A DNA stretch of 64,000 bases from an uncultured Pseudomonadales bacterium (GTDB taxonomy: Bacteria; Patescibacteriota; Microgenomatia; UBA1400; UBA12028). The stretch is taken from the NCBI GenBank assembly GCA_964492495.1, contig CAZBKJ010000001.1, forward strand, positions 2,251 through 66,250, in the 5' to 3' direction. A program made the position numbers and the translations under genes. Shown here in pieces: positions 3,932 through 58,544 of the stretch (positions are counted from its first letter, which is position 1; every line of letters begins with the position of its first letter). Under the pieces are notes generated by a model that made no database searches, was not told the DNA's origin, and worked only from the letters and a program-made list of their open reading frames with translations.

Positions 3932-5353
3932 ATGAAACTCTACAACACGCTCTCTCGAACAATTGAAGAAGTGCAACCAATCACAAAGATGCACATCGGT
4001 ATGTATGCCTGTGGTCCGACTGTGTATGACTATGCCCATATTGGTCACATGCGAAAGTACACCATGGATGATGTGCTGGTCAGGACACTCAAACATGCTG
4101 GGTTTTCAGTAGAGCACGTCATGAATATCACGGATGTGGGGCATTTGGTGTCGGACTCGGATGAGGGTGAAGACAAGATGGAAAAAGGGGCAAAAAAATA
4201 TGGAAAGACTGTCTGGGATGTGGCGAAAGAGTTTGAAGAGTTTTTTTGGAAGTGTATAGATGCGATGGATGTTGCAAGACCGGATGTGAGCTGCAAAGCG
4301 ACTGCACATATCCCTGAACAGATTGAGATGATCAAGCGACTTGAGAAACATAATCTCACGTACGTGATAGATGATGGGGTGTATTTTGATACAGAAAAAT
4401 TTCCTTCATATGGAGAACTTGCCAAACTTGATAAAGAATCAATTAAAGCAGGAGCACGAGTAGAGATGGTTGCTGGAAAGAAAAACGCGACTGATTTTGC
4501 GCTGTGGAAGTTCTCACCAAAAAATGAACAACGTGCAATGGAGTGGGGAAGTCCATGGGGGAAAGGGTTTCCAGGATGGCACATTGAGTGCAGTGCGATG
4601 GCAATACGGTATCTAGGTGAGCAATTTGATATTCACACAGGAGGAATTGATCACATTCCGATTCACCATACCAATGAGATCGCACAGGCAGAAGGGGCGA
4701 CGGGAAAGCATCCATTTGTTCGTACCTGGGTTCATCATAATTTTCTTCGGGTTGAGAATGAGAAAATGAGTAAGTCTCTAGGGAATTTCTTTACCCTTGA
4801 CGATGTGACTGCAAAAGGGTTTTCACCAATGGCTCTTAAGCTTTTGTTTTTGGGCAGTCACTATCGAAGTGAGCTGAATTTTACGTGGGCAAATCTAGAA
4901 GCATCGCAAAAAGCATATGACAAGCTTGTGGGAATACTGACACAGGCCAAAAAAGAAACAGAGCGAACAACACTTTCGCAGGAGAAAGTAAAAAAACTCA
5001 ATGACTATCGCACTCGGTTTTTTTCACAGATGGAAAACGATTTGCATACTCCTGAGGCTACGTCACTACTGTGGGAAGTAGCCAAGAGTAACATTCCTGG
5101 TGGAGATAAGTACGATTTACTCATAGAGTTTGATTCTGTTTTAGGACTTGGGCTTGCAAAAGCGTCTACACTTTCTGGTTCACCTTCCACACATGAAATT
5201 CCGTCTGGGGTGCAGATGCTTCTTGATAAACGACAAGCTGCCAGAGACAGCAAGGATTTTGTAGCGTCCGATACTCTTCGAGATGCAATCGCAAAATTGG
5301 GCTGGAGTGTAAAAGACACAAGTGAAGGACAAAAAGTCAAAAAGAATAGCTAA
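3932..5353 (+). CDS. cysS: cysteine--tRNA ligase
   Basis: HIGH motif (CGPTVYDYAHIGHMRKY) and KMSKS motif (KMSKSLGN). RBS aaggaag lies 8 nt upstream of the ATG at 3932. The ORF track start at 3893 is likely an upstream in-frame extension. Confidence 0.95.
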   Translation: MKLYNTLSRTIEEVQPITKMHIGMYACGPTVYDYAHIGHMRKYTMDDVLVRTLKHAGFSVEHVMNITDVGHLVSDSDEGEDKMEKGAKKYGKTVWDVAKEFEEFFWKCIDAMDVARPDVSCKATAHIPEQIEMIKRLEKHNLTYVIDDGVYFDTEKFPSYGELAKLDKESIKAGARVEMVAGKKNATDFALWKFSPKNEQRAMEWGSPWGKGFPGWHIECSAMAIRYLGEQFDIHTGGIDHIPIHHTNEIAQAEGATGKHPFVRTWVHHNFLRVENEKMSKSLGNFFTLDDVTAKGFSPMALKLLFLGSHYRSELNFTWANLEASQKAYDKLVGILTQAKKETERTTLSQEKVKKLNDYRTRFFSQMENDLHTPEATSLLWEVAKSNIPGGDKYDLLIEFDSVLGLGLAKASTLSGSPSTHEIPSGVQMLLDKRQAARDSKDFVASDTLRDAIAKLGWSVKDTSEGQKVKKNS

Positions 5354-48519: not shown

Positions 48520-49653
48520 ATGATCAGTAAAGAAGCTTCAGCTCCACAAATTCACTCATACTCTCACACATACATTCCTCAGGTCATCGATATACCATTC
48601 CAACTCAACGACGGTAATTTTGATATACCTCTAGGTTGGCACAATGTTGTTCCTTCACTTGCATACTTAGTGGACTATAGTTCGATTCAGCCAGTTCATA
48701 ATGGTGATCAGGTGGCAGAAAAAAAATCACAAGTCGAAAGAGAAAAAGACGTGCGACAAGCTATCGAAAATGATCTAAAAGATAAAGAAATTCGAATCAA
48801 GCAAATCTTCATGGAAGGTCAAAGTAGTGCTGACACTGTCAAACTCAATTATTTGTATTCTGTTCAGGAAAGAGCAGAAAGTAATCATGAAGAAAATATC
48901 CAAAACGCACAAGAATATGTTCTTCAAGCACTAGATGATGCTCGATCATTTTTTCCATCAACGCAAAGAATTCATTTTGAAATTTGGGTTCTCCCCATAG
49001 ATGAACAACAGCAGGAAAACAGTGAGTATGTATTTTCATCTCTATTTGCTGACCTTGGAAGCTTAATAAAGCGACGAGGAATATCAGTATCTGGAGGAAG
49101 CAGCTGTTTTATTATCTGTCTTCCAAAAAAAAGCTTCAGGGACTATATTCCAGATTCTTTCTCAGGAATCGAAACAAATACTATAAAAAGCAGTTTTGAT
49201 CAAAGTCTCTATGTACAAATACGGCATGAGATAACACACGGAATTCAAACAACTCTTGAAGGAGATAGCGATTTTGCAACAGAAGGTGTAGCAATGCTCG
49301 TAGAGGGTCTTTATCTTAACTCGAACTTTATTCATGGAAAAGTGCGTCGAGAAGATATCAATGTTGAAGAGATACTGGAGCTGGCGAATAAGCGCGATTA
49401 TGAAGGCTACTCTTCTTCAGAGCATATGCTCTACTGGGTATCACATTCACTCTTTCGGTTTATCTATGATTACTTTTACAGAGATGCAAATAAATTTGGA
49501 GAATTGCTAGACCTTCTGCGAAAGCCACAAAAACTATCCTTTTCAGAGGCATTTTATACAGTTTTTCAGATGAAATTTGAAGCACTTGTACCCATGTGGA
49601 AACATGAGATTTTCAGAGGTGAATTTCAAATAGAAAAATGGGAGAGCGAATGA
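48520..49653 (+). CDS. hypothetical protein with HExxH (HEITH) motif, putative zinc metallopeptidase
   Basis: 377 aa; AT-rich; VQIRHEITHGIQ. Confidence 0.4.
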   Translation: MISKEASAPQIHSYSHTYIPQVIDIPFQLNDGNFDIPLGWHNVVPSLAYLVDYSSIQPVHNGDQVAEKKSQVEREKDVRQAIENDLKDKEIRIKQIFMEGQSSADTVKLNYLYSVQERAESNHEENIQNAQEYVLQALDDARSFFPSTQRIHFEIWVLPIDEQQQENSEYVFSSLFADLGSLIKRRGISVSGGSSCFIICLPKKSFRDYIPDSFSGIETNTIKSSFDQSLYVQIRHEITHGIQTTLEGDSDFATEGVAMLVEGLYLNSNFIHGKVRREDINVEEILELANKRDYEGYSSSEHMLYWVSHSLFRFIYDYFYRDANKFGELLDLLRKPQKLSFSEAFYTVFQMKFEALVPMWKHEIFRGEFQIEKWESE

Positions 49654-50858
49654 AGAACAATATCGGCAGAAACGACCCTTGTCCTTGTGGAGCAATCAAC
49701 GCGGAAACAGGAAAACCAGTAAAGTACAAGAAATGTTGTTTCATTCATCCCATAGATATGCCATCTCAACTTGAATTTATGCAGATGAAGGTTGAAATGA
49801 TGCAAAAAGCAGTCACTATGAGAAACGTATTGAAAACTAAAGGCATTTTTATTGATTTCCCAGCCCCTGTAGTTTTCAAAGGAAAATCAATTTGGGCATT
49901 TGGCAGTGGGTTGTATTTCTATCCAAAAGAACACATGACCTTTCACGAGGGACTAATTTTTGTCCTTAGAAATCTTCTAGCAAAGGATAAAAAGTGGGTA
50001 GCAGAGCAAGAAGCAGTACCATTAGAAAAACGACACTTTATTTTGAAGTGTTATCACGAGTATCTTAAATGGAGAAATAAAAATAGTACACCTGAAAACC
50101 AAATAGGAGATGAAAAATGGAGAGCAATCCCAGACGGATTGACCAAATCTTTACTATCATTGGCATTTGACGTAGCTTGCATTATCCACGTTCATGGCCA
50201 CATACCTGAAAAAATCATTGAGCGATTGAAGAAAACCGACAACATCTATCAAGGTGCGAGATACGAAATAGCAGTTGCAGCAATTTTTGCTCGACTAGGA
50301 TGCAAGTTCGAGTTCTTAGATGAAAAACTAGATCATCTTACTCAAACACCTGGCCACTGCGAGTTCTTTGCGACAGATGAGGAAACGAACACTATTGTTG
50401 CAGTTGAAGCGAAAAGTAAGGTAAGAAAAGGTGTGTTGCATCAACCTGGGCAATCTACTGAGTTTCAACTATGGAACAATGTCACAGGTCCGTATAGAAA
50501 TGCCCTCAAGCAGAGTCCTGAGGATGTTCCGTTTATTGTATTTGTTGACGTAAACTCACCACCAACTCCCGGTCTAGATAAATTTGAAAAGCCATGGGCT
50601 AAGGAAATCTTAGAAAGTAGAGAGAAAACTCCACTGAACAAACCAGGGAAACCAGATCCTTGCACACTAATAGTCTATACAAACTATTCATACCATTACC
50701 AAACTGGTACTGAGGCTAAGGCAAATGAAGCAATTACAGTTGCTCCTGCTTATCCTAAGCACGCTGTCTCTGAATTATTTTTGAATAAGTTACAAATGGC
50801 AATAGAAAACTATAGCTTTATTCCAAATATTGAGTACGATGGTACAGTTAAAGGATAA
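49650..50858 (+). CDS. SEC-C motif-containing protein of unknown function
   Basis: N-terminal RNDPCPCGAINAETGKPVKYKKCC is a SEC-C zinc-binding motif; the rest is unassigned. ORF track start is 49638. Confidence 0.5.
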   Translation: MKNNIGRNDPCPCGAINAETGKPVKYKKCCFIHPIDMPSQLEFMQMKVEMMQKAVTMRNVLKTKGIFIDFPAPVVFKGKSIWAFGSGLYFYPKEHMTFHEGLIFVLRNLLAKDKKWVAEQEAVPLEKRHFILKCYHEYLKWRNKNSTPENQIGDEKWRAIPDGLTKSLLSLAFDVACIIHVHGHIPEKIIERLKKTDNIYQGARYEIAVAAIFARLGCKFEFLDEKLDHLTQTPGHCEFFATDEETNTIVAVEAKSKVRKGVLHQPGQSTEFQLWNNVTGPYRNALKQSPEDVPFIVFVDVNSPPTPGLDKFEKPWAKEILESREKTPLNKPGKPDPCTLIVYTNYSYHYQTGTEAKANEAITVAPAYPKHAVSELFLNKLQMAIENYSFIPNIEYDGTVKG

Positions 50859-50975
50859 GAGAGCAGCTCATTTCATGAATGTAATAAACTCTAAGGGTGT
50901 GACTCTTGAATGTCTGGAACAGTTTTGTCACATAGTTTGTGATCTGAACCTAACAGTAATTAATAAAGGCTGATA

Positions 50976-51737
50976 CTACTTGAAGATGTGACTTAACTGT
51001 TCAACCTCTTTGATCATCGATTCTAAAACTGTAGTTACTGGTTTCCCCTCAATAATGCTCTTTTCATTCAGAACAACCTCAAAGCGAAATTGCATTTTAA
51101 GGTTTGGCTCTGCATCAAGGGAATCCACAAAGAGCACATCACCAGGTTTAAGGGGAAAAAGGTTATCTGCAGGTCTAATAAATAATGGCATATCAGGAAT
51201 ATCATTGTCTTTCATTAATTTTTTCATTTGAGCAATCATTAGTGACCCTATATCCACGCTTCCAAAAGTTGAACCAACTGTAATAAGCAATCTATGCTTG
51301 TCAATGTTATTAAGCATTGCTATCGTCCAAAGAGTATCATTTCCTCCTTTGTATGGTTGTATGGAATCAATAAGTTTTAATTTTTTGCCAGATATACCTT
51401 TTGTCTTTCTCACTTTTTCTTTTTCATAAGTTTGAAGATCCTTTTCTATTGGGAAATATATATGCTTTGAGGATACTGTACCTTTGTTCTCTGAAATAAA
51501 TAAATCATAAGCTAAATGATCTAATGCGCTTCTGAGATTCTGAATAACATCACCAGAAATCAAGGCGATCTTATCAGGTACACTTGCTACATCCGTCAAA
51601 TAGTAGACGAGGCGTTTTGTCTGAGAATCTCTCCTGGTACCAATTCTGTATGGATTCGATGCGAAGAAAGCACTAATTTCTATTTGGAGCTCTCCCAAGT
51701 GTTGTTTGGCTCGATCAATTTTATTTATCCAGTTCAT
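50976..51737 (-). CDS. hypothetical protein
   Basis: 253 aa; AT-rich. Confidence 0.4.
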   Translation of the reverse strand: MNWINKIDRAKQHLGELQIEISAFFASNPYRIGTRRDSQTKRLVYYLTDVASVPDKIALISGDVIQNLRSALDHLAYDLFISENKGTVSSKHIYFPIEKDLQTYEKEKVRKTKGISGKKLKLIDSIQPYKGGNDTLWTIAMLNNIDKHRLLITVGSTFGSVDIGSLMIAQMKKLMKDNDIPDMPLFIRPADNLFPLKPGDVLFVDSLDAEPNLKMQFRFEVVLNEKSIIEGKPVTTVLESMIKEVEQLSHIFK

Positions 51738-51940
51738 ATTCAGGTTCTAAAATGTAAGTTTGGATACGTAGGAGCGATATTAGCAGAGACATAGTGCATT
51801 TTTGAGCAGGAGTATGGGTCGCACTGGACCTTGTGATATTTCGGACCCACCCCGTCACCGCCAGCTGGCGGTTCCCACCACTTCTTATCTGCTAGAATCA
51901 AAAACTACAAAAAAAACCGCGGGAAGCGGCTTTTTTATTG

Positions 51941-51960
51941 TTTGTGACCCCACCCGAATT
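51941..51960 (-). repeat. direct repeat of the 3'-terminal ~19 nt of tRNA-Glu (gaattcgggtggggtcaca), 125 bp downstream of the intact tRNA
   Basis: Plus-strand tgtgaccccacccgaattc occurs at 51942-51960 and again at 52085-52103. The interval between them contains a 12-bp hairpin and a truncated T-arm-like remnant. Confidence 0.7.
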
Positions 51961-52049
51961 CTCCCCGCAAGGGGGATGGGGCAGGTCACCTCATTGGTGA
52001 CTTGCCCTTAGAATCGGATTCGACTCCTATTCTGTGAGGAGTACAAGGT

Positions 52050-52079
52050 AAAAAAAATCAGGCTATAGCCTGATTTTTT
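52050..52079. terminator. bidirectional rho-independent terminator (A8-tcaggc-tata-gcctga-T6), 3' of tRNA-Glu
   Basis: Perfect palindrome flanked by A-run and T-run. Confidence 0.7.
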
Positions 52080-52085
52080 CACCTG

Positions 52086-52158
52086 TGACCCCACCCGAAT
52101 TCGAATCGGGGTTACCAGGATGAGAACCTGGTGTCCTAGGCCTCTAGACGATGGGGCC
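52086..52158 (-). tRNA. tRNA-Glu (anticodon CUC), 73 nt, CCA not encoded
   Basis: Reverse complement reads GGCCCCA-TC-GTC-TAGAGGCCTAG-GAC-A-CCAGG-TTCTCAT-CCTGG-TAAC-CCCGA-TTCGAAT-TCGGG-TGGGGTC-A. This gives a 7-bp acceptor stem (one GU), a 3-bp D stem as in bacterial tRNA-Glu, and a TTCGAAT T-loop. Confidence 0.85.
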
Positions 52159-52419
52159 ATGCGCCATTTTTTCTAAATGGTCCGTAAGCATGATCTTTAC
52201 AGCTCTTTTACCTTTTGTAGTTTTTAAGTAATTTTCTCTTCTTCTCGCATCTTTCTCTGAAAGAAACGCTTCGTAGAATATGAGTCGGACAGTACCCATT
52301 CTTTTTGTTGAATACACACCTTTACTGAGATGCTTACGGATTCTTTCTTTTAAGTTTGCCGTAAATCCTGTGTATATTTTCCCAGTATCTCTACTTTGTA
52401 AGAGATATACGTAATACAT
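52144..52419 (-). CDS. GIY-YIG nuclease superfamily protein (small, UPF0213-like); its last ~5 codons overlap the 5' end of tRNA-Glu
   Basis: YYVYLLQSRDTGKIYTGFTANLKERIRKH (GIY...YIG). The ATG is at 52419; the ORF track uses TTG at 52425. Confidence 0.7.
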   Translation of the reverse strand: MYYVYLLQSRDTGKIYTGFTANLKERIRKHLSKGVYSTKRMGTVRLIFYEAFLSEKDARRRENYLKTTKGKRAVKIMLTDHLEKMAHGPIV

Positions 52420-52488
52420 TAGCAATACTCTATCATGAACCAGAATAAATTCGATTCATGACCATGAACCGTGCTTTGCACTGGTTCA

Positions 52489-52625
52489 CGGGACGATGGG
52501 GCCAAGCTGAGCTTGGCTATACTTGCGCTTAGCGCAAGTGCCTCTTCAAACCAATACTAATCCGAGCTTAGCTCGGGTGCCAAACTGATGACTATCTTAC
52601 TTACGCTGGGCGCAAGTGCCTCTAT
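52489..52625. repeat. array of short perfect hairpins plus repeats: tRNA-Glu 5'-end fragment copy (gacgatggggcc), three 7-bp-stem/3-nt-loop hairpins (52501-17, 52522-38, 52562-76), and a 14-mer gcgcaagtgcctct x2
   Basis: Read directly from the sequence between the two GIY-YIG genes. Confidence 0.6.
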
Positions 52626-52628
52626 TAA

Positions 52629-52919
52629 TCATGTATTGTACTTGAGTTTTTCAAAAATATGTCTTAACTGTATCTTTAGCTCTTTTTTTCCTTTACCACC
52701 TTTTAGATAAGTTTCTCTCTGCTTTGCGTCACTTTGTTCGACATACGCTTCGTAATATATGAGGACAAGTGGTCTTCTATACTTTGTGGCACTTACGAAT
52801 CCGTTTACATGAGCTTTATATCGAGATTTCAAATCGTGCGTAAAACCCGTATAAAGTTGCTTGTCTTTTCCTGAATACAAGATGTACATGTAATACATTT
52901 GTACATTTAATTTTATCAC
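52629..52919 (-). CDS. GIY-YIG nuclease superfamily protein (second tandem copy)
   Basis: MYYMYILYSGKDKQLYTGFTHDLKSRYKAH; the true start is probably MYYMYIL (52895). Confidence 0.7.
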   Translation of the reverse strand: MIKLNVQMYYMYILYSGKDKQLYTGFTHDLKSRYKAHVNGFVSATKYRRPLVLIYYEAYVEQSDAKQRETYLKGGKGKKELKIQLRHIFEKLKYNT

Positions 52920-53726: not shown

Positions 53727-56700
53727 ATGGCCAATCTTGACATTATCATTCCAGTCTTTAATGAAGAAGCGACCATTGGCCCGTTAATTTCGCGGATCGA
53801 TAAGATACTTCGCAAAGAACACATCCCATATCATATAATTGTTGTGGATGATCGCTCTACTGACAGAAGCCTAGAACGAGTAAAAAAGGCAAGTCAAAGT
53901 TTCCCAATCACAGTTCTTAAGAAAAAAGGCCAGCAAGGAAAAGCTTTTTCTATTCTTGAGGGTATAAAAGCCTCGACCAGTGACTACATCTGTATGATCG
54001 ATGCCGATCTGCAGTATCCTCCTGAAGCAATTCCAGCGTTGTTTGATCTTGCACAGATATCCGGTGTCGCAGTAGCTCGTCGTATCACCTACGGTGGTTC
54101 TGTTGTCAGACGTATTGGAAGCAGAATACTTGCTTTTGTCCTAGGAAAGCTTCTGCATGGAATCCACTGCGATATGCAGTCGGGACTTAAGGTTTTTAAG
54201 AAAGAAATCACTGAGTTTATTAATGTCGACGAGATTACTCCTTGGGCTTTTGATCTTCCATTACTTCATGCCGCCAAACAAATGGGGTATGACATAGCAG
54301 AAGTTCCTATCGATTTCACTGAACGAGAAAATGGTGATTCAAAACTCACTCTTCTTGGTCCAACTGTACAGATTGCCAAGGGCGCGCTTCGATTAAAGTT
54401 CACAACGATCCATCCGCGAGTGATTCTTCCAGATACAAAAGAATCCATGAAAGGTGCAGGTTTTGTCCATAAAGGCAAGCGATTTATCACGCACTCAACA
54501 CTTCATCACTCAAAGAGTGCACTGCTTGTGATAACCCCAAGTCAAAAAACAGTTTTCTTTATTATTCTTGCTCTTTTTTGTTTTGGGGCAGTATTTGCGA
54601 CACTTTTTACCTTTAAGATTGCTGTTGCCATACTTTCATTTGTCTACTTTATTGATGTGTTGTTTAACTTTTTCCTTATCCTTCGAAGTCTTCAATCACC
54701 TCCAGAAATTAGTTCAGACAAGAACGAGATCTTGGCACTCAAAGATAAAGATCTCCCTGTCTATTCGATTCTATGTCCGTTGTATAAGGAAGCCCATGTT
54801 ATTCCTCAATTTGTTGAAAGTATTTCCAATCTTGATTGGCCAAAATCAAAGCTTGAAGTAATGCTTCTCTTGGAAGAAGACGATACGGAGTCAATCGAAG
54901 CAGTCAAAGACATGAACTTGCCTTCATATATTCGAAGTGTCGTTGTTCCAAACTCTCAACCAAAAACCAAACCAAAAGCATGTAACTACGGACTCAGTCA
55001 CGCGAAAGGCGAGTACTTGGTCATTTTTGATGCAGAAGACAATCCAGATCCACTTCAATTAAAGAAAGCGTACTTGGGATTCCAGAAGGTTGGTCCAAAT
55101 ATTCGCTGTTTGCAAGCAAAGCTTAATTACTACAACCCAACACAAAATGTCCTTACCCGCATGTTTACTGCAGAGTATTCACTCTGGTTTGACGTCATTT
55201 TGACGGGACTTCAATCCATTCAAACGACAATTCCTTTGGGTGGAACCAGTAATCACTTCCGCACAAAAGATCTGTTGGAGCTTGAAGGATGGGATCCGTT
55301 TAACGTCACAGAAGACTGTGACCTCGGAATCAGACTGTTTAAGCACGGCTACAAAACCGCAATCATCGACTCAACGACTCTTGAAGAAGCAAACAGTAAT
55401 GTTCTCAACTGGATTAGACAGAGAAGCAGATGGATTAAAGGCTACATGCAGACATATCTTCTCCACATGCGAGATCCTTTAGACTTTTTTAGTACACAAG
55501 GAATTCATGCATTATTGTTCCAGCTGACCGTTGGTGGAAAGATTGCCTTTATTTTAATCAACCCAATTTTGTGGGTTTTGACGATTTTGTACTTTACCTT
55601 AAATGCAGTTGTCGGGCCGACGATCGAAGCTCTGTACCCGTCAATTGTGTTCTACATGGCCGTGACATCACTTGTTTTTGGAAACTTCATGTTTATTTAC
55701 TACTACATGTTGGGTGCAGCAAAGCGTGAACAGTGGTGGCTCATGAAATGGATCTATCTTGTTCCGATCTATTGGTTGATGGTCAGTGTGGCTGCCTGCA
55801 TGGCTCTGTATCAACTGATAGTAAAACCACACTACTGGGAAAAGACCATTCACGGTCTACACCTAAAAAAAAAGCTTGAAAATGAAGCAAAAGAGACTGC
55901 AAAGGTTGTAACTGCATCTATTTTAGCCGAAGTTGAAACCAAAAAACCTCCTGTACAGCCAAGTGAGAGCACAGCCTACACAAAAAAAAGAATACAGTCG
56001 TTTGGAGTTTTCTCAAATCTTTTGAAGTATCGAAGAAGTTTCACTGGTATTTTCTCCAAGATTATCAAAGGTGAGTATCGTGGAGGAGCTTTACTTGTAG
56101 CGGCAACGATGGCAGCAAATGTGCTGAACATGGGAACAAACTTCTACATGGGGCATGCACTACGATTGACTGATTTTGCACTCTTTAATACATACCTCAG
56201 TTTGTTAAACATTATCTCAATCTTTTCTTCATCGCTTGGAACAACTGTCAATCAACGCTCAGCACACTTACTTGGAAAAATTGGGCATACACGTGCCGTC
56301 AATTTCTGGAGACATATAAAGAATCGAGTATTCTTTGTTTCTCTTATCCTCACTGGGCTGTGGGTCATCTGTATCCCGATGACAAGTTCATTTTTAAGTA
56401 TTGATTCCAATATACCGCTCTTATTGTTTACTCCAATTTTGCTTCTTCTTGGTATTAATGCTGTGAATCAAGGGTATTTGCGTGGAGCACTCGCCTTTGA
56501 ACTCGTTGCTGTTGTGACGATACTTCAGCCACTGACCCGGTTACTATCGACGATAATTTTCGGAGAGCTCACCTATGGTGAGTATGCGTACTTGTCGATT
56601 CCTACCGGAGTTGTAGTTGCAGCATTGGTTTCTCACTTCTTTGCGAGAAAAGGTGAGTCTGTGGAGATTGCACACAAAGATTTGAAGCTTCCAAAGACAT

Positions 56701-58544
56701 TTTTCTTTTTGGCTTTGCTTGCGAACCTCTCTTCTATTGGGTTCTTTAGTCTTGATAACATTTTTGTGGCTCACTATCTGACTGCACAAGAAACTGGACA
56801 GTATGGAATTCTGGGACTACTTGGCAAAATGATCTTCTTCTCCGGAAGTCTGATTACCGGCTTTATCCTTCCGATTACGGCTTTTCGTGAAGGAAAAGGG
56901 TTGTCATCAGATGCTGTGTTCAAGAAACTGCTTCTTGTTACTGTCGCAATTTCAACCCTCGCCTTCTTGGCTATCGGGGTAGGAATTCCCCTCATTGCAC
57001 CATACATGTTTGGGGCGAAGATCAATGCAATCAGGCCGTTCCTGACACTCTATAGTGCAAGTATTCTCCTCTATACAGTTTCTCAGGCAATTGTTCAGTT
57101 TCATCTAGCAAAGAAGAACTATGTGTTTGCTGTGGCTTCATTTGCGGTCACCTTGATTCAAGGGCTTTTACTCGCGCTGTTTCATCGAACTTTGGGTGAA
57201 GTGGTCATCGCCATGTTTGCCACAAGTGTGGTGAATATCGGGGTTTTATTGATTCTTCATGTGTTTTTAGAGCGGGTCACGATCGTACTTTCAAACATCA
57301 GAGATTTCTTTGATCTGCTTTTTGGAAAACTGCGACAGTCTTCTCGTTCGTTTGAAAAGAAAGATACCTATAGAGTTCTCATCTTTAACTGGAGAGATAC
57401 AAAACATAAATGGGCAGGTGGAGCAGAGATGTATGTTCATGAAATGGCCAAGAATCTTGTCAAAAAAGGACACAAGGTTACGGTCTTTTGTGGAAACGAT
57501 GGGAAGTCAGTTCGAAATGAAGTTGTTGATGGAGTACAGGTGATTCGTCGCGGTGGATTTTATACGGTCTATTTCTGGGCGTTTTTATACTATACTCTTC
57601 GACTTCGAAACTATGTTGATATTGTTATCGATAGTGAAAATGGAATCCCATTTTTAACTCCATTCTATGTGCGAAAACCAATCTATTTACTGATTCATCA
57701 TGTGCATCAGGAAATATTTCGAACGCAACTGCGATTCCCTTTATCTGAAATTGCATTGTTTATCGAAGGTGACCTGATGCCATTCTCGTACAAGAGACAT
57801 TCAGTTATTACGGTTTCAGAGTCCTCAAAAGAAGAAATCATTGATCTGGGTCTTGGAAGTGCAAAGACTATCAAAGTCATCAACCCTGGAATCGATCATA
57901 GTTTGTTTGGTCGTCAAAAGAAAACAGCCTATCCATCTTTAGTATATGTTGGTAGGCTGAAACCATATAAGAATATTGACACTGCATTGTATGCGTTTGC
58001 GACTGTTTTGGAAAAGTTCCCGCAGGCAAAGTTCTCTATCGCTGGACTCGGAGAAAGCCTACGTTCCTTGAAAGAACTAGCAAAGAAATTAGAGATTGAA
58101 CATGCGGTGACATTCTTGCAAAAAATTGATGACAAAGAAAAAGCACGTTTATTTGCTCGAAGCTGGGTGGCAGTCCAGCCATCAATGATTGAAGGCTGGG
58201 GAATCACAGTCATTGAATCAAACGCATCTGGAACACCTGTCGTTGCTTCCAATGTCAAAGGACTCAAAGATTCCATCAAAGACAAAGAAACGGGAGTATT
58301 GGTAGAGGTTGCTAATACAAAAGCGTTCGCTACTGCCATCGTTGATCTCTTTTCAAATGAAAAGAAACGAAACCAGATGAGTGAATCCGCATTGAACTGG
58401 TCGCAAAAATTTACCTGGGAAATAAGCACAAAAGCGTTTGTAACGGAGTTTAATTCTGGAATGCATGTGGAAGCACAATCACGAAAGAAACTTTCGTTTG
58501 ATCGTATGCCTGTGACGGCAAAAATGTATGAAAAAAGTCGATAA
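53727..58544 (+). CDS. 1605-aa multidomain glycosyltransferase fusion: GT2 (DPM1-like), TM, processive GT2 (QxxRW), ~430-aa polytopic domain (flippase/polymerase-like), GT4
   Basis: Uninterrupted ORF in the track. GT2-1: IIIPVFNEE...VVDDRSTD...DADLQYP. GT2-2: VYSILCPLYKE...FDAEDNPDP...QRSRWIKG. Polytopic block of more than 12 hydrophobic helices spans residues ~760-1190. GT4: YRVLIFNWRDTKHKWAGGAEMY... and EGWGITVIESNASGTPVVAS...ETGVLVE (EX7E). Confidence 0.8.
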   Translation: MANLDIIIPVFNEEATIGPLISRIDKILRKEHIPYHIIVVDDRSTDRSLERVKKASQSFPITVLKKKGQQGKAFSILEGIKASTSDYICMIDADLQYPPEAIPALFDLAQISGVAVARRITYGGSVVRRIGSRILAFVLGKLLHGIHCDMQSGLKVFKKEITEFINVDEITPWAFDLPLLHAAKQMGYDIAEVPIDFTERENGDSKLTLLGPTVQIAKGALRLKFTTIHPRVILPDTKESMKGAGFVHKGKRFITHSTLHHSKSALLVITPSQKTVFFIILALFCFGAVFATLFTFKIAVAILSFVYFIDVLFNFFLILRSLQSPPEISSDKNEILALKDKDLPVYSILCPLYKEAHVIPQFVESISNLDWPKSKLEVMLLLEEDDTESIEAVKDMNLPSYIRSVVVPNSQPKTKPKACNYGLSHAKGEYLVIFDAEDNPDPLQLKKAYLGFQKVGPNIRCLQAKLNYYNPTQNVLTRMFTAEYSLWFDVILTGLQSIQTTIPLGGTSNHFRTKDLLELEGWDPFNVTEDCDLGIRLFKHGYKTAIIDSTTLEEANSNVLNWIRQRSRWIKGYMQTYLLHMRDPLDFFSTQGIHALLFQLTVGGKIAFILINPILWVLTILYFTLNAVVGPTIEALYPSIVFYMAVTSLVFGNFMFIYYYMLGAAKREQWWLMKWIYLVPIYWLMVSVAACMALYQLIVKPHYWEKTIHGLHLKKKLENEAKETAKVVTASILAEVETKKPPVQPSESTAYTKKRIQSFGVFSNLLKYRRSFTGIFSKIIKGEYRGGALLVAATMAANVLNMGTNFYMGHALRLTDFALFNTYLSLLNIISIFSSSLGTTVNQRSAHLLGKIGHTRAVNFWRHIKNRVFFVSLILTGLWVICIPMTSSFLSIDSNIPLLLFTPILLLLGINAVNQGYLRGALAFELVAVVTILQPLTRLLSTIIFGELTYGEYAYLSIPTGVVVAALVSHFFARKGESVEIAHKDLKLPKTFFFLALLANLSSIGFFSLDNIFVAHYLTAQETGQYGILGLLGKMIFFSGSLITGFILPITAFREGKGLSSDAVFKKLLLVTVAISTLAFLAIGVGIPLIAPYMFGAKINAIRPFLTLYSASILLYTVSQAIVQFHLAKKNYVFAVASFAVTLIQGLLLALFHRTLGEVVIAMFATSVVNIGVLLILHVFLERVTIVLSNIRDFFDLLFGKLRQSSRSFEKKDTYRVLIFNWRDTKHKWAGGAEMYVHEMAKNLVKKGHKVTVFCGNDGKSVRNEVVDGVQVIRRGGFYTVYFWAFLYYTLRLRNYVDIVIDSENGIPFLTPFYVRKPIYLLIHHVHQEIFRTQLRFPLSEIALFIEGDLMPFSYKRHSVITVSESSKEEIIDLGLGSAKTIKVINPGIDHSLFGRQKKTAYPSLVYVGRLKPYKNIDTALYAFATVLEKFPQAKFSIAGLGESLRSLKELAKKLEIEHAVTFLQKIDDKEKARLFARSWVAVQPSMIEGWGITVIESNASGTPVVASNVKGLKDSIKDKETGVLVEVANTKAFATAIVDLFSNEKKRNQMSESALNWSQKFTWEISTKAFVTEFNSGMHVEAQSRKKLSFDRMPVTAKMYEKSR

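Follow-up and report, generated by a model that had tools for sequence, protein, structure and literature searches.

Two GIY-YIG nuclease genes stacked at a bacterial tRNA-Glu gene are probable members of a widespread class of selfish cassettes on stable-RNA genes

We analyzed a 64-kb stretch of contig CAZBKJ010000001.1 (assembly GCA_964492495.1, the whole stretch being called the window below), in which two small genes for stand-alone GIY-YIG nucleases, g1 and g2, lie one behind the other at a tRNA-Glu(CTC) gene. g1 and g2 are two different cassettes stacked at one tRNA, where a cassette consists of an 85–90-aa, catalytic-domain-only GIY-YIG gene and a palindromic hairpin module specific to the protein subfamily, co-oriented with a stable-RNA gene and placed inside it or at one of its ends. 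Based on this locus and on related loci in other genomes and metagenomes, the two are probably stacked members of a widespread class of selfish cassettes that reside on stable-RNA genes and encode UPF0213 nucleases resembling homing endonucleases, with the tRNA being regenerated. As far as could be found, these cassettes are an undescribed, and widespread, variant of endonuclease-gene cassettes.

On the minus strand, the order of the elements is a sortase gene, g2, an array of four hairpins, an orphan copy of the tRNA 5' end, a double hairpin, g1, the intact tRNA-Glu(CTC) gene, a terminator, and a second tRNA remnant (Table 1). An initial annotation of this DNA had pointed to two minus-strand GIY-YIG open reading frames (ORFs) of ~90 aa, and both are present as genes whose products match the Pfam GIY-YIG domain. 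It had also stated that the first of them reads 15 nt into the 5' end of the tRNA, which is confirmed by the position of the g1 stop codon, a TAG (52146-52144) inside the tRNA gene. g1 has no stop codon of its own; its final 5 codons and the TAG are supplied by nt 1–15 of the tRNA, and its C-terminal tail is not conserved among relatives (alignment A2). As an ORF, g1 starts at TTG 52425, and by homology at ATG 52419, whereas the g2 ORF as listed spans 52919-52629 and has its start by homology at ATG 52898, 32 nt past the stop codon of the sortase gene. The tRNA-Glu(CTC) gene is the sole tRNA gene of the window, in which no GIY-YIG homolog was found besides g1 and g2.

Between the two ORFs lies an exact copy of tRNA-Glu nt 1–12, as the initial annotation had claimed for the tRNA 5' end. 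This word, GGCCCCATCGTC, occurs twice in the window (0.13 occurrences expected; no shuffle reached 2), and the match rises to 15 of 16 positions when 4 upstream nt are included (52507-52492). Two further elements had been overlooked. Module H, a g1-type double hairpin of 59 nt, directly follows the orphan fragment and interrupts the tRNA-derived sequence after nt 12; nt 13–17 stand behind the module as TAGAG, and the g1 start codon lies 8 nt farther on. Only about 70 nt separate the orphan fragment from the g1 ORF.

Related ORFs are found next to tRNA genes in many phyla. Our sample comprised 63 genome loci and 80 metagenome loci with g1 relatives, plus 21 loci around specific relatives; these 164 loci (cited by handles of the form L001) and the window contain 188 ORFs, and an earlier subset, the first 147 loci, contains 168 ORFs. 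In this subset, a tRNA on the same strand starts between −50 and +60 nt from the stop codon of 57 of the 168 ORFs (opposite strand, 0), and 47 of the 168 have a same-strand tRNA ending at most 300 nt upstream (opposite strand, 2). Across the full set, 105 of the 188 ORFs abut a same-strand tRNA. Clustering at 90% identity leaves 114 non-redundant clusters, 59 of them linked to tRNA genes, with 30 tRNA species represented, and the stop codon lies within the tRNA in 18 of the 37 clusters in which the ORF precedes the tRNA. Two-cassette stacks such as the one in the window recur in L001, L020, L022, L066, and L164. By hand tally, ~70% of the 188 ORFs are located at a stable-RNA gene when stack members, tRNAs 84–91 nt downstream, and two loci with the tRNA cut by the contig edge (L100 and L148) are counted; one locus (L163) starts too near its ORF for tRNA linkage to be judged. 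The initial annotation had suggested either a small selfish or homing-type module or an RNA-processing or regulatory structure particular to this locus. The co-oriented, tRNA-abutting relatives in many phyla, together with the recurrent orphan tRNA fragments and conserved hairpins described below, support the first suggestion, tied to tRNA, and do not bear out a structure restricted to this locus. Neither of the two observations that it had named as counting against its proposal was made, namely GIY-YIG paralogs elsewhere in the genome without a link to tRNA and a hairpin region that close relatives do not share.

Orphan tRNA copies like the one in the window are common in these loci. An exact upstream copy of the tRNA 5' end of at least 9 nt is present in 33 of the 57 ORF-then-tRNA cases. 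The orphan fragments are 9–58 nt long and often decayed; the copy extends to nt 35–36, at the anticodon, in nine cases (including L001, L025, L028, L033, L048, L066, and L077) and to nt 12–13 in the g1 lineage. Most of the copies are cut by a palindromic module of 22–114 nt, usually two hairpins, after which the tRNA sequence resumes at the next nucleotide. The module stands between nt 35 and nt 36–48 in L066, between nt 36 and nt 37–41 in L025, and between nt 12 and nt 13–20 in L069 and L070, and there are two modules within one orphan copy in L081 and in L024. The breakpoints of the non-redundant set are clustered in the D arm (positions 10–21) and at the anticodon. In L069 and L070, the resumed sequence has 8 nt (TAGCGGCC), in L067 it has 13 nt, and each matches the tRNA of its own locus. 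Tandem arrays of partial tRNA plus hairpin also stand beside GIY-YIG ORFs, with three copies of a 149-nt unit (L027 2560-2890), two of a 113-nt unit (L028 2690-2915), or three of a unit of about 91 nt (L063 2717-2990). The mirror-image arrangement, a tRNA 3' fragment downstream of a tRNA-then-ORF cassette, was seen at only a few loci (L104, L155), and several other significant matches turned out to be the next tRNA. At one locus (L025 4495-4604), the last 37 nt of the GIY-YIG ORF stand again ahead of a second copy of tRNA-Arg(GCG), at the opening of a 1.4-kb stretch that is missing from the 97%-identical L087; here the junction of ORF end and tRNA was duplicated along with extra DNA.

Within the g1 lineage, both the target and the point of interruption are constant. 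Six non-redundant relatives of g1 (58–76% identity; L064/L065, L066, L067, L068, L069, and L070) all lie at tRNA-Glu and have unrelated neighbor genes, so that the lineage is tied to one target in the relatives examined. The breakpoint between nt 12 and nt 13 is found by exact match in five of these relatives and by eye in L067; the same 12-nt orphan stands upstream in L064, L066, L068, L069, and L070 and has diverged in L067. Both hairpins of module H are kept in five of the six relatives, and L064 keeps one. Across 6 loci, 95% of the stem cells of module H are paired and 14 of 25 pairs have changes on both sides (alignment A1); none of 500 shuffles reached the observed value, and slid controls were ~30% paired.

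The hairpins also differ between the two subfamilies. Palindromes of the g2 type, GCTNAGC, are present in two copies upstream of all 17 relatives of g2 (at least 60% identity; roughly five independent loci) and are absent upstream of the 156 other ORFs, and hairpins of the g1 type, RWACC..GGTWY, stand upstream of 10 of 14 g1-family ORFs and 0 of 18 g2-family ORFs. These data show that the hairpin type is specific to the protein subfamily. The canonical order in the g2 relatives is tRNA, two hairpins, ORF, and the first hairpin borrows the last nucleotides of the tRNA as one of its arms.

The spacer between g2 and g1, about 203–209 nt, carries g2-type hairpins as well. Three hairpins of the array are exact palindromes centered on GCTNAGC, the first three are each preceded by GGCAC with a unit period of 39 nt, and the 3' arm of the fourth extends 3 nt into the orphan tRNA fragment. 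The array abuts the old 5' end of tRNA-Glu. Three perfect hairpins with 7-bp stems and 3-nt loops had been described initially; the loops are as described, and the hairpins number four, with stems of differing length (Table 1). The duplicated 14-mer of the same description, AGAGGCACTTGCGC, is present at 52623-52610 and 52545-52532. Folding of the spacer, proposed in the initial annotation, gave a far better structure than that of shuffled sequences (z = −6.95). An Rfam search with E-value thresholds, which covered the window region and 10 loci, returned no family matching the hairpin modules, and the g2-type stem word is not enriched elsewhere in the window, a search that did not extend to the g1-type module. 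An exact 13-mer of the spacer, TAGTATTGGTTTG (52559-52547), has a single match among the 164 loci, at L164 1017-1029, within the spacer after a GIY-YIG ORF in a locus with the order ORF, hairpin-bearing spacer, tRNA. When the GGCAC-plus-hairpin units are left out, the window spacer resembles that of L164, as if the units were discrete insertions.

Several other identities were considered for these repeats and rejected. The GGCAC hairpins are not a dispersed genome repeat within the 64-kb window, where the stem word is not enriched outside the locus. A CRISPR-like reading of the 39-nt array is ruled out by its having only three degenerate units, each of them palindromic, and "spacers" of 13–17 nt. 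A group I intron is excluded by the intact tRNA and by the lack of a match to RF00028 in the window region and 10 related loci. In one locus of the sample, a group I intron (L115 188-436; Rfam, 69.5 bits) does occur 186 nt upstream of a GIY-YIG ORF that is followed by two tRNA genes.

The Pfam PF01541 scores of 57.5 bits (g1) and 47.6 bits (g2) exceed the cut-off of 22.6, and the domain spans residues 1–74 of the 89–91 residues. Seven positions do not vary among 15 sequences, g1, g2, and BH0048 included (Y3, Y5, Y16, G18, R26, H30, and E62; alignment A2). Because the residues Y, Y, R, H, and E are among them, both proteins are probably active nucleases. Among solved structures, the best match in the Protein Data Bank is the UPF0213 protein BH0048 (1zg2, E = 2e-8), followed by weaker matches to 1ywl (E = 0.012) and to SLX1 (7wme, E = 0.078). 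The C-terminal PHD/RING zinc finger of Slx1 proper is not present, nor is there any sequence past the catalytic domain; therefore, these proteins are not Slx1 orthologs. g1 and g2 are 43% identical to each other, and each has counterparts in other genomes or metagenomes at 70–76% identity. Relatives of g1 in metagenomes reach 66–76% identity, and those of g2 form a tight family of 90-aa proteins (60–74% identity) in Parcubacteria, Levybacteria, and Woesebacteria, with Microgenomates among the sources. Together with the sequence of the tRNA-Glu, the origins of these homologs suggest a Microgenomates-like member of the Patescibacteria. The family as a whole has 3,447 cluster representatives at 50% identity.

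Loci without a tRNA were scanned with Rfam for other RNA genes, and RNase P RNA, transfer-messenger RNA (tmRNA), and 23S rRNA genes were found as hosts, in all cases on the same strand as the ORF. The ORF is inside or abuts the RNase P RNA gene in 7 loci (L004, L010, L017, L039, L090, L097, and L099). Inserts in this gene occupy a helix-tip position and are bracketed by an 18–19-nt inverted repeat (for example, CCCCGCACATAACTCCTAA / TTAGGAGTTATGTGCGGGG, just ahead of the conserved AGGAAAGTCCG), and Rfam reports either partial RNA only or a 705-nt span for a 367-nt model. At tmRNA genes, the ORF lies 91–121 nt downstream (L059 1485-2136; L127/L128 984-1737). Nine ORFs are inside 23S rRNA genes in 7 loci (L015, L019, L036, L105, L117, L136, and L146). 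The 23S gene of L105 contains a 304-nt ORF-bearing insert (1469-1773) bounded by a 15-nt inverted repeat (CTGCACTTATTTTAA / TTAAAATAAGTGCAG), and the same site is empty in L136 (2339-2356) and L015 (about 4884-4905), the 23S genes compared being 85–95% identical. This is one clean case of presence and absence of a cassette, in the 23S rRNA of relatives. A second such insert occurs at 440-786 of the L105 gene.

A route by which such loci could arise can be outlined from these observations. The cassette would enter the tRNA gene at nt 12/13 and either bring along the 5' part or have it regenerated; therefore, the tRNA would stay intact and the displaced 5' end would persist as an orphan. This would be a replacement of a gene end comparable to that by the mobile ORFs of fungal mitochondria. 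The ORFs would be co-transcribed with the tRNA, the promoter probably being one ahead of g2 or that of the old tRNA, and RNase P would release the tRNA from the ORF-tRNA transcript. A promoter scan was uninformative (2 sites, 4.2 expected). By analogy with the homing of T4 SegB, the nuclease may spread its cassette by breaking a cassette-free RNA gene, which recombination would then repair from a filled copy. Repeated invasion and decay could leave stacks, hairpin arrays, and tRNA remnants. Such cassettes would be selfish, inserting with regeneration of the RNA gene and spreading by means of their nuclease, and at the window locus the nucleases would be expected to cleave, and the cassettes to have moved, in this way.

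Several observations weigh against selfish cassettes that home in this manner. In the hand tally, ~30% of the ORFs have no recognized stable RNA nearby. Pfam and NCBIfam detect no second domain in the 85–91-aa proteins, and the DNA-binding domain of Seg-like enzymes is missing, which leaves site-specific recognition of a tRNA gene without explanation. The presumed target is kept in the intact tRNA beside the ORF, so that self-cleavage would be expected under a simple homing model and the immunity of a filled allele is left without explanation. In the window and most loci, the orphan does not differ from the functional 5' part (4 of 12 positions differ in L067), as would be expected of a local origin or of gene conversion more than of import from a foreign donor. 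Most tRNA-then-ORF cassettes have no duplicate of the tRNA 3' end, and the g2-type hairpins, upstream of the ORF in all relatives, are downstream of g2 in the window. No homolog was found in phage and plasmid collections (E ≤ 1e-6), so a transfer vehicle is without a candidate. Finally, no cassette-free allele of the tRNA-Glu locus and no close relative of the genome were found in the databases: the sortase neighbor has no homolog but itself, and g1 and g2 also lead to no related genome. Because of this lack of a cassette-free allele, we infer mobility at the tRNA-Glu locus from the relatives.

The lack of a DNA-binding domain, the kept target, the identical copies, the missing 3' duplicates, and the absence of a carrier leave room for the hairpin modules as the real mobile agents, with a structure-specific nuclease recognizing them in the form of folded DNA. 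Tentatively, and with a low chance of being right, the minimal UPF0213 nucleases and their cognate palindromic modules could form an unrecognized, structure-directed class of mobile elements specialized on stable-RNA genes. Such an enzyme would recognize folded hairpin or cloverleaf DNA instead of a long sequence and would cut tRNA genes at the D arm or anticodon and the genes for rRNA and RNase P RNA at the tips of helices, and repair would install the hairpin module and the ORF while the RNA gene is regenerated. Another possibility, which we consider unlikely, is that the hairpin modules are the primary mobile units, like REP/RAYT or the double-hairpin elements of mitochondria; the GIY-YIG protein would be their structure-specific nuclease, cutting hairpins or the cloverleaf-folded single-stranded DNA of RNA genes, and the tRNA fragments would be by-products of insertion and repair. 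The modules do interrupt tRNA-derived sequence precisely, twice in one copy in L081 and L024, and they form arrays that lack an ORF (window 52620-52501; L028, L063). The likeness of the window spacer, less its GGCAC-plus-hairpin units, to the L164 spacer with its shared 13-mer, the covariation of hairpin type with protein subfamily, and the Slx1 type of the protein, a type of structure-specific nuclease, point the same way. However, no dispersed copies of the hairpin types turned up in the rest of the 64-kb window (the g2-type stem word was the one searched), modules were seen only beside ORFs or RNA genes, no GIY-YIG enzyme is known as a hairpin transposase, and palindromes may keep their pairing without selection for mobility.

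It is quite improbable that the ORFs are ordinary host genes, for example for a UPF0213 nuclease of DNA repair or RNA processing, that are retained in stable-RNA operons to be co-expressed, amid incidental recombination debris and processing or terminator signals. The strict same-strand order and tight spacing do resemble operons, the catalytic residues are conserved, and YhbQ and YazA of model bacteria are not known as mobile, but host genes would not be expected as several diverged copies stacked at one RNA gene (window, L001, L066, L164), at thirty tRNA species and four kinds of RNA gene, or inside helices of rRNA and RNase P RNA. The presence and absence of an insert between near-identical 23S genes, the orphan tRNA copies, and the unrelated neighbor genes around close relatives also argue against this. 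A device that works at the RNA level is very unlikely. Here, the orphan fragment and hairpins would be a regulatory or processing leader of the ORF-tRNA transcript, or a tRNA-derived guide by which the nuclease would be led to tRNA genes. The hairpins, with their covarying stems, always occupy what would be the 5' leader of an ORF, the first nucleotides of the orphan acceptor strand are sequestered by hairpins in the window and L068, and cleavage by RNase P would remove the stop codon in about half of the ORF-then-tRNA clusters. Yet covariation is equally expected of DNA hairpins, the window region and 10 loci gave no Rfam family match, 85 aa is very small for an RNA-guided enzyme, and the orphan fragments vary between 9 and 58 nt and are often decayed. 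The initial annotation had favored a local event, the tandem duplication of a single unit of tRNA fragment and GIY-YIG gene, which we now find scarcely credible. Duplications of this kind occur elsewhere, as in L001, where two visibly near-identical 403-nt units each open with tRNA-Gln nt 1–36. In the window, it is rejected because g1 and g2 are only 43% identical, are each much closer to proteins of other genomes, and have different hairpin types; there is also no tRNA fragment ahead of g2.

The reading of the locus as two selfish cassettes can be compared with known systems. SegB, like the cassettes, is encoded among tRNA genes; it is a phage-borne protein of ~220 aa with a DNA-binding part, and its gene stands between tRNA genes, where neither orphan tRNA fragments nor hairpin modules occur. 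It is a free-standing GIY-YIG homing endonuclease of the T4 tRNA cluster whose recognition site includes a tRNA T-loop motif, and segB and the neighboring tRNA genes are preferentially inherited after cleavage of the allele that lacks the gene (PMC2330249). Unlike SegB, the window-type proteins of 85–91 aa have only the catalytic domain, are chromosomal, and have no phage or plasmid homolog that we could find. In fungal mitochondria, double-hairpin elements are linked to endonuclease ORFs. The mobile ORFs of these genomes (Allomyces atp6; Glomus atp6, atp9, cox2, and nad3) insert together with a substitute for the end of the gene, the displaced native end persisting as a fragment, and their endonucleases are of the LAGLIDADG or GIY-YIG type (PMC3630166). 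The double-hairpin elements of those genomes are referred to as being considered mobile (Paquin et al. 2000, as cited in PMC3787672 and PMC10085805). Like these systems, the window has an endonuclease ORF between a functional gene and a displaced copy of its end (orphan nt 1–12 plus 13–17, ORF, intact tRNA) and, in module H, two adjacent hairpins with conserved structure. The fungal ORFs hit the 3' ends of mitochondrial protein genes, whereas the cassettes are found at bacterial tRNA genes and usually involve the 5' part; in addition, the orphan copy here is itself split by a hairpin module, and the copies are usually identical rather than foreign.

A further comparison is with the rRNA insertion sequences of the candidate phyla radiation (CPR), in which GIY-YIG genes were reported as sparse and possibly not spread by homing, with tRNA never mentioned (PMC11270868). 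Those insertions likewise place small GIY-YIG ORFs inside stable-RNA genes of Patescibacteria, and here such ORFs are also found in the 23S rRNA of other phyla; that work does not report cassettes that flank tRNA genes, orphan fragments, or the genes for RNase P RNA and tmRNA as hosts (PMC11270868). In the literature searched, we found no account in which small GIY-YIG genes are tied to tRNA genes or reside in the genes for RNase P RNA or tmRNA, which is not proof of novelty. The proteins resemble UPF0213 proteins (BH0048, 1zg2; EF2693, 1ywl; Escherichia coli YhbQ; Bacillus subtilis YazA) in their single-domain size and catalytic residues, and differ from Slx1, which has a C-terminal zinc finger and a partner, Slx4, both absent from g1 and g2. 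Integrase-borne tRNA islands share with the locus the tRNA target, restoration of the gene end by the element, and a direct repeat of the tRNA end (the 19-nt copy in Table 1). Unlike those islands, the locus has no integrase, it is the 5' part that is repeated, each element measures about 0.35 kb, and the 3' repeat encloses only 122 nt.

That 19-nt copy belongs to a second tRNA-Glu remnant downstream of the intact tRNA, which had also been overlooked. The copy lies 141 nt downstream, no ORF is present within the 122 nt between the 19-nt repeats, and Pfam and NCBIfam find no integrase domain in the flanking ORFs of 253, 406, and 377 aa. An integrase-type tRNA island was rejected for want of a recombinase gene between the tRNA-end repeats. 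The remnant region folds as a cloverleaf-like four-way junction (z = −7.4), and the remnant may be the relic of an ORF-less cassette or a tRNA-like element.

For the three ORFs downstream of the tRNA locus (window 48520-51737; 377, 406, and 253 aa), neither Pfam nor NCBIfam gave a significant match; an N-terminal SEC-C-like CPCG..CC motif is present in the 406-aa ORF. The group could be an island at the tRNA, although no integrase domain was seen. On the other side, a 1,605-aa plus-strand ORF (window 53727-58544) is divergent from the sortase gene and is an apparent fusion of glycosyltransferase domains with a long multi-pass membrane part.

Table 1. Features of the tRNA-Glu locus, given in window positions
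Feature	Position	Strand	Remarks
Sortase gene	53500-52931	minus	
g2, 89-aa stand-alone GIY-YIG (UPF0213-type) gene, distal cassette	52629-52898	minus	Pfam PF01541, E = 2.1e-12
Array of four 3-nt-loop hairpins	52501-52620	minus	
Array hairpin 1	52617-52599	minus	8-bp stem including one G-T
Array hairpin 2	52576-52562	minus	6-bp stem
Array hairpin 3	52539-52521	minus	8-bp stem
Array hairpin 4	52517-52501	minus	7-bp stem
Orphan copy of tRNA-Glu nt 1–12, GGCCCCATCGTC	52503-52492	minus	Exact match
Module H, g1-type double hairpin	52433-52491	minus	CCGTGAACC..GGTTCATGG, then TCATGAATC..TGGTTCATGA
TAGAG, tRNA-Glu nt 13–17	52428-52432	minus	tRNA sequence resuming after module H
g1, 91-aa stand-alone GIY-YIG (UPF0213-type) gene, proximal cassette	52144-52419	minus	Pfam PF01541, E = 1.7e-15
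Intact tRNA-Glu(CTC)	52158-52085	minus	ARAGORN; Rfam RF00005, 53.9 bits
Intrinsic terminator-like perfect palindrome, then T run	52050-52079	minus	Directly 3' of tRNA-Glu
Second tRNA-Glu remnant	51943-52007	minus	Downstream of the intact tRNA
Remnant part: hairpin	52007-51979	minus	
Remnant part: GCCCCATC	51982-51975	minus	tRNA nt 2–9
Remnant part: mini hairpin	51974-51963	minus	
Remnant part: 19-nt copy of tRNA 3' end	51961-51943	minus	Exact; 0 expected
Second terminator-like hairpin	51910-51936	minus	After the tRNA remnant

If the locus is what we propose, the "hypothetical GIY-YIG nuclease" that is so common in Patescibacteria and many other phyla would not be a housekeeping enzyme; it would be cargo carried by miniature selfish cassettes, which would colonize those genes of the cell that are the most conserved and the most highly transcribed. 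Such cassettes would account for the stray tRNA fragments and hairpin arrays near tRNA genes, the ORFs that run into tRNAs, and the oversized RNase P RNA and 23S rRNA genes of metagenome-assembled genomes, and they would caution annotators about pseudo-tRNAs and misplaced ends of RNA genes. The orphan-fragment scars would be a readable record of past invasions, and the cassettes would allow one to ask, in a compact and testable system, how an 85-aa nuclease finds its target with no DNA-binding domain. If the tentative, structure-directed version were true, a large family of unknown function, with 3,447 representatives, would gain a biological role.

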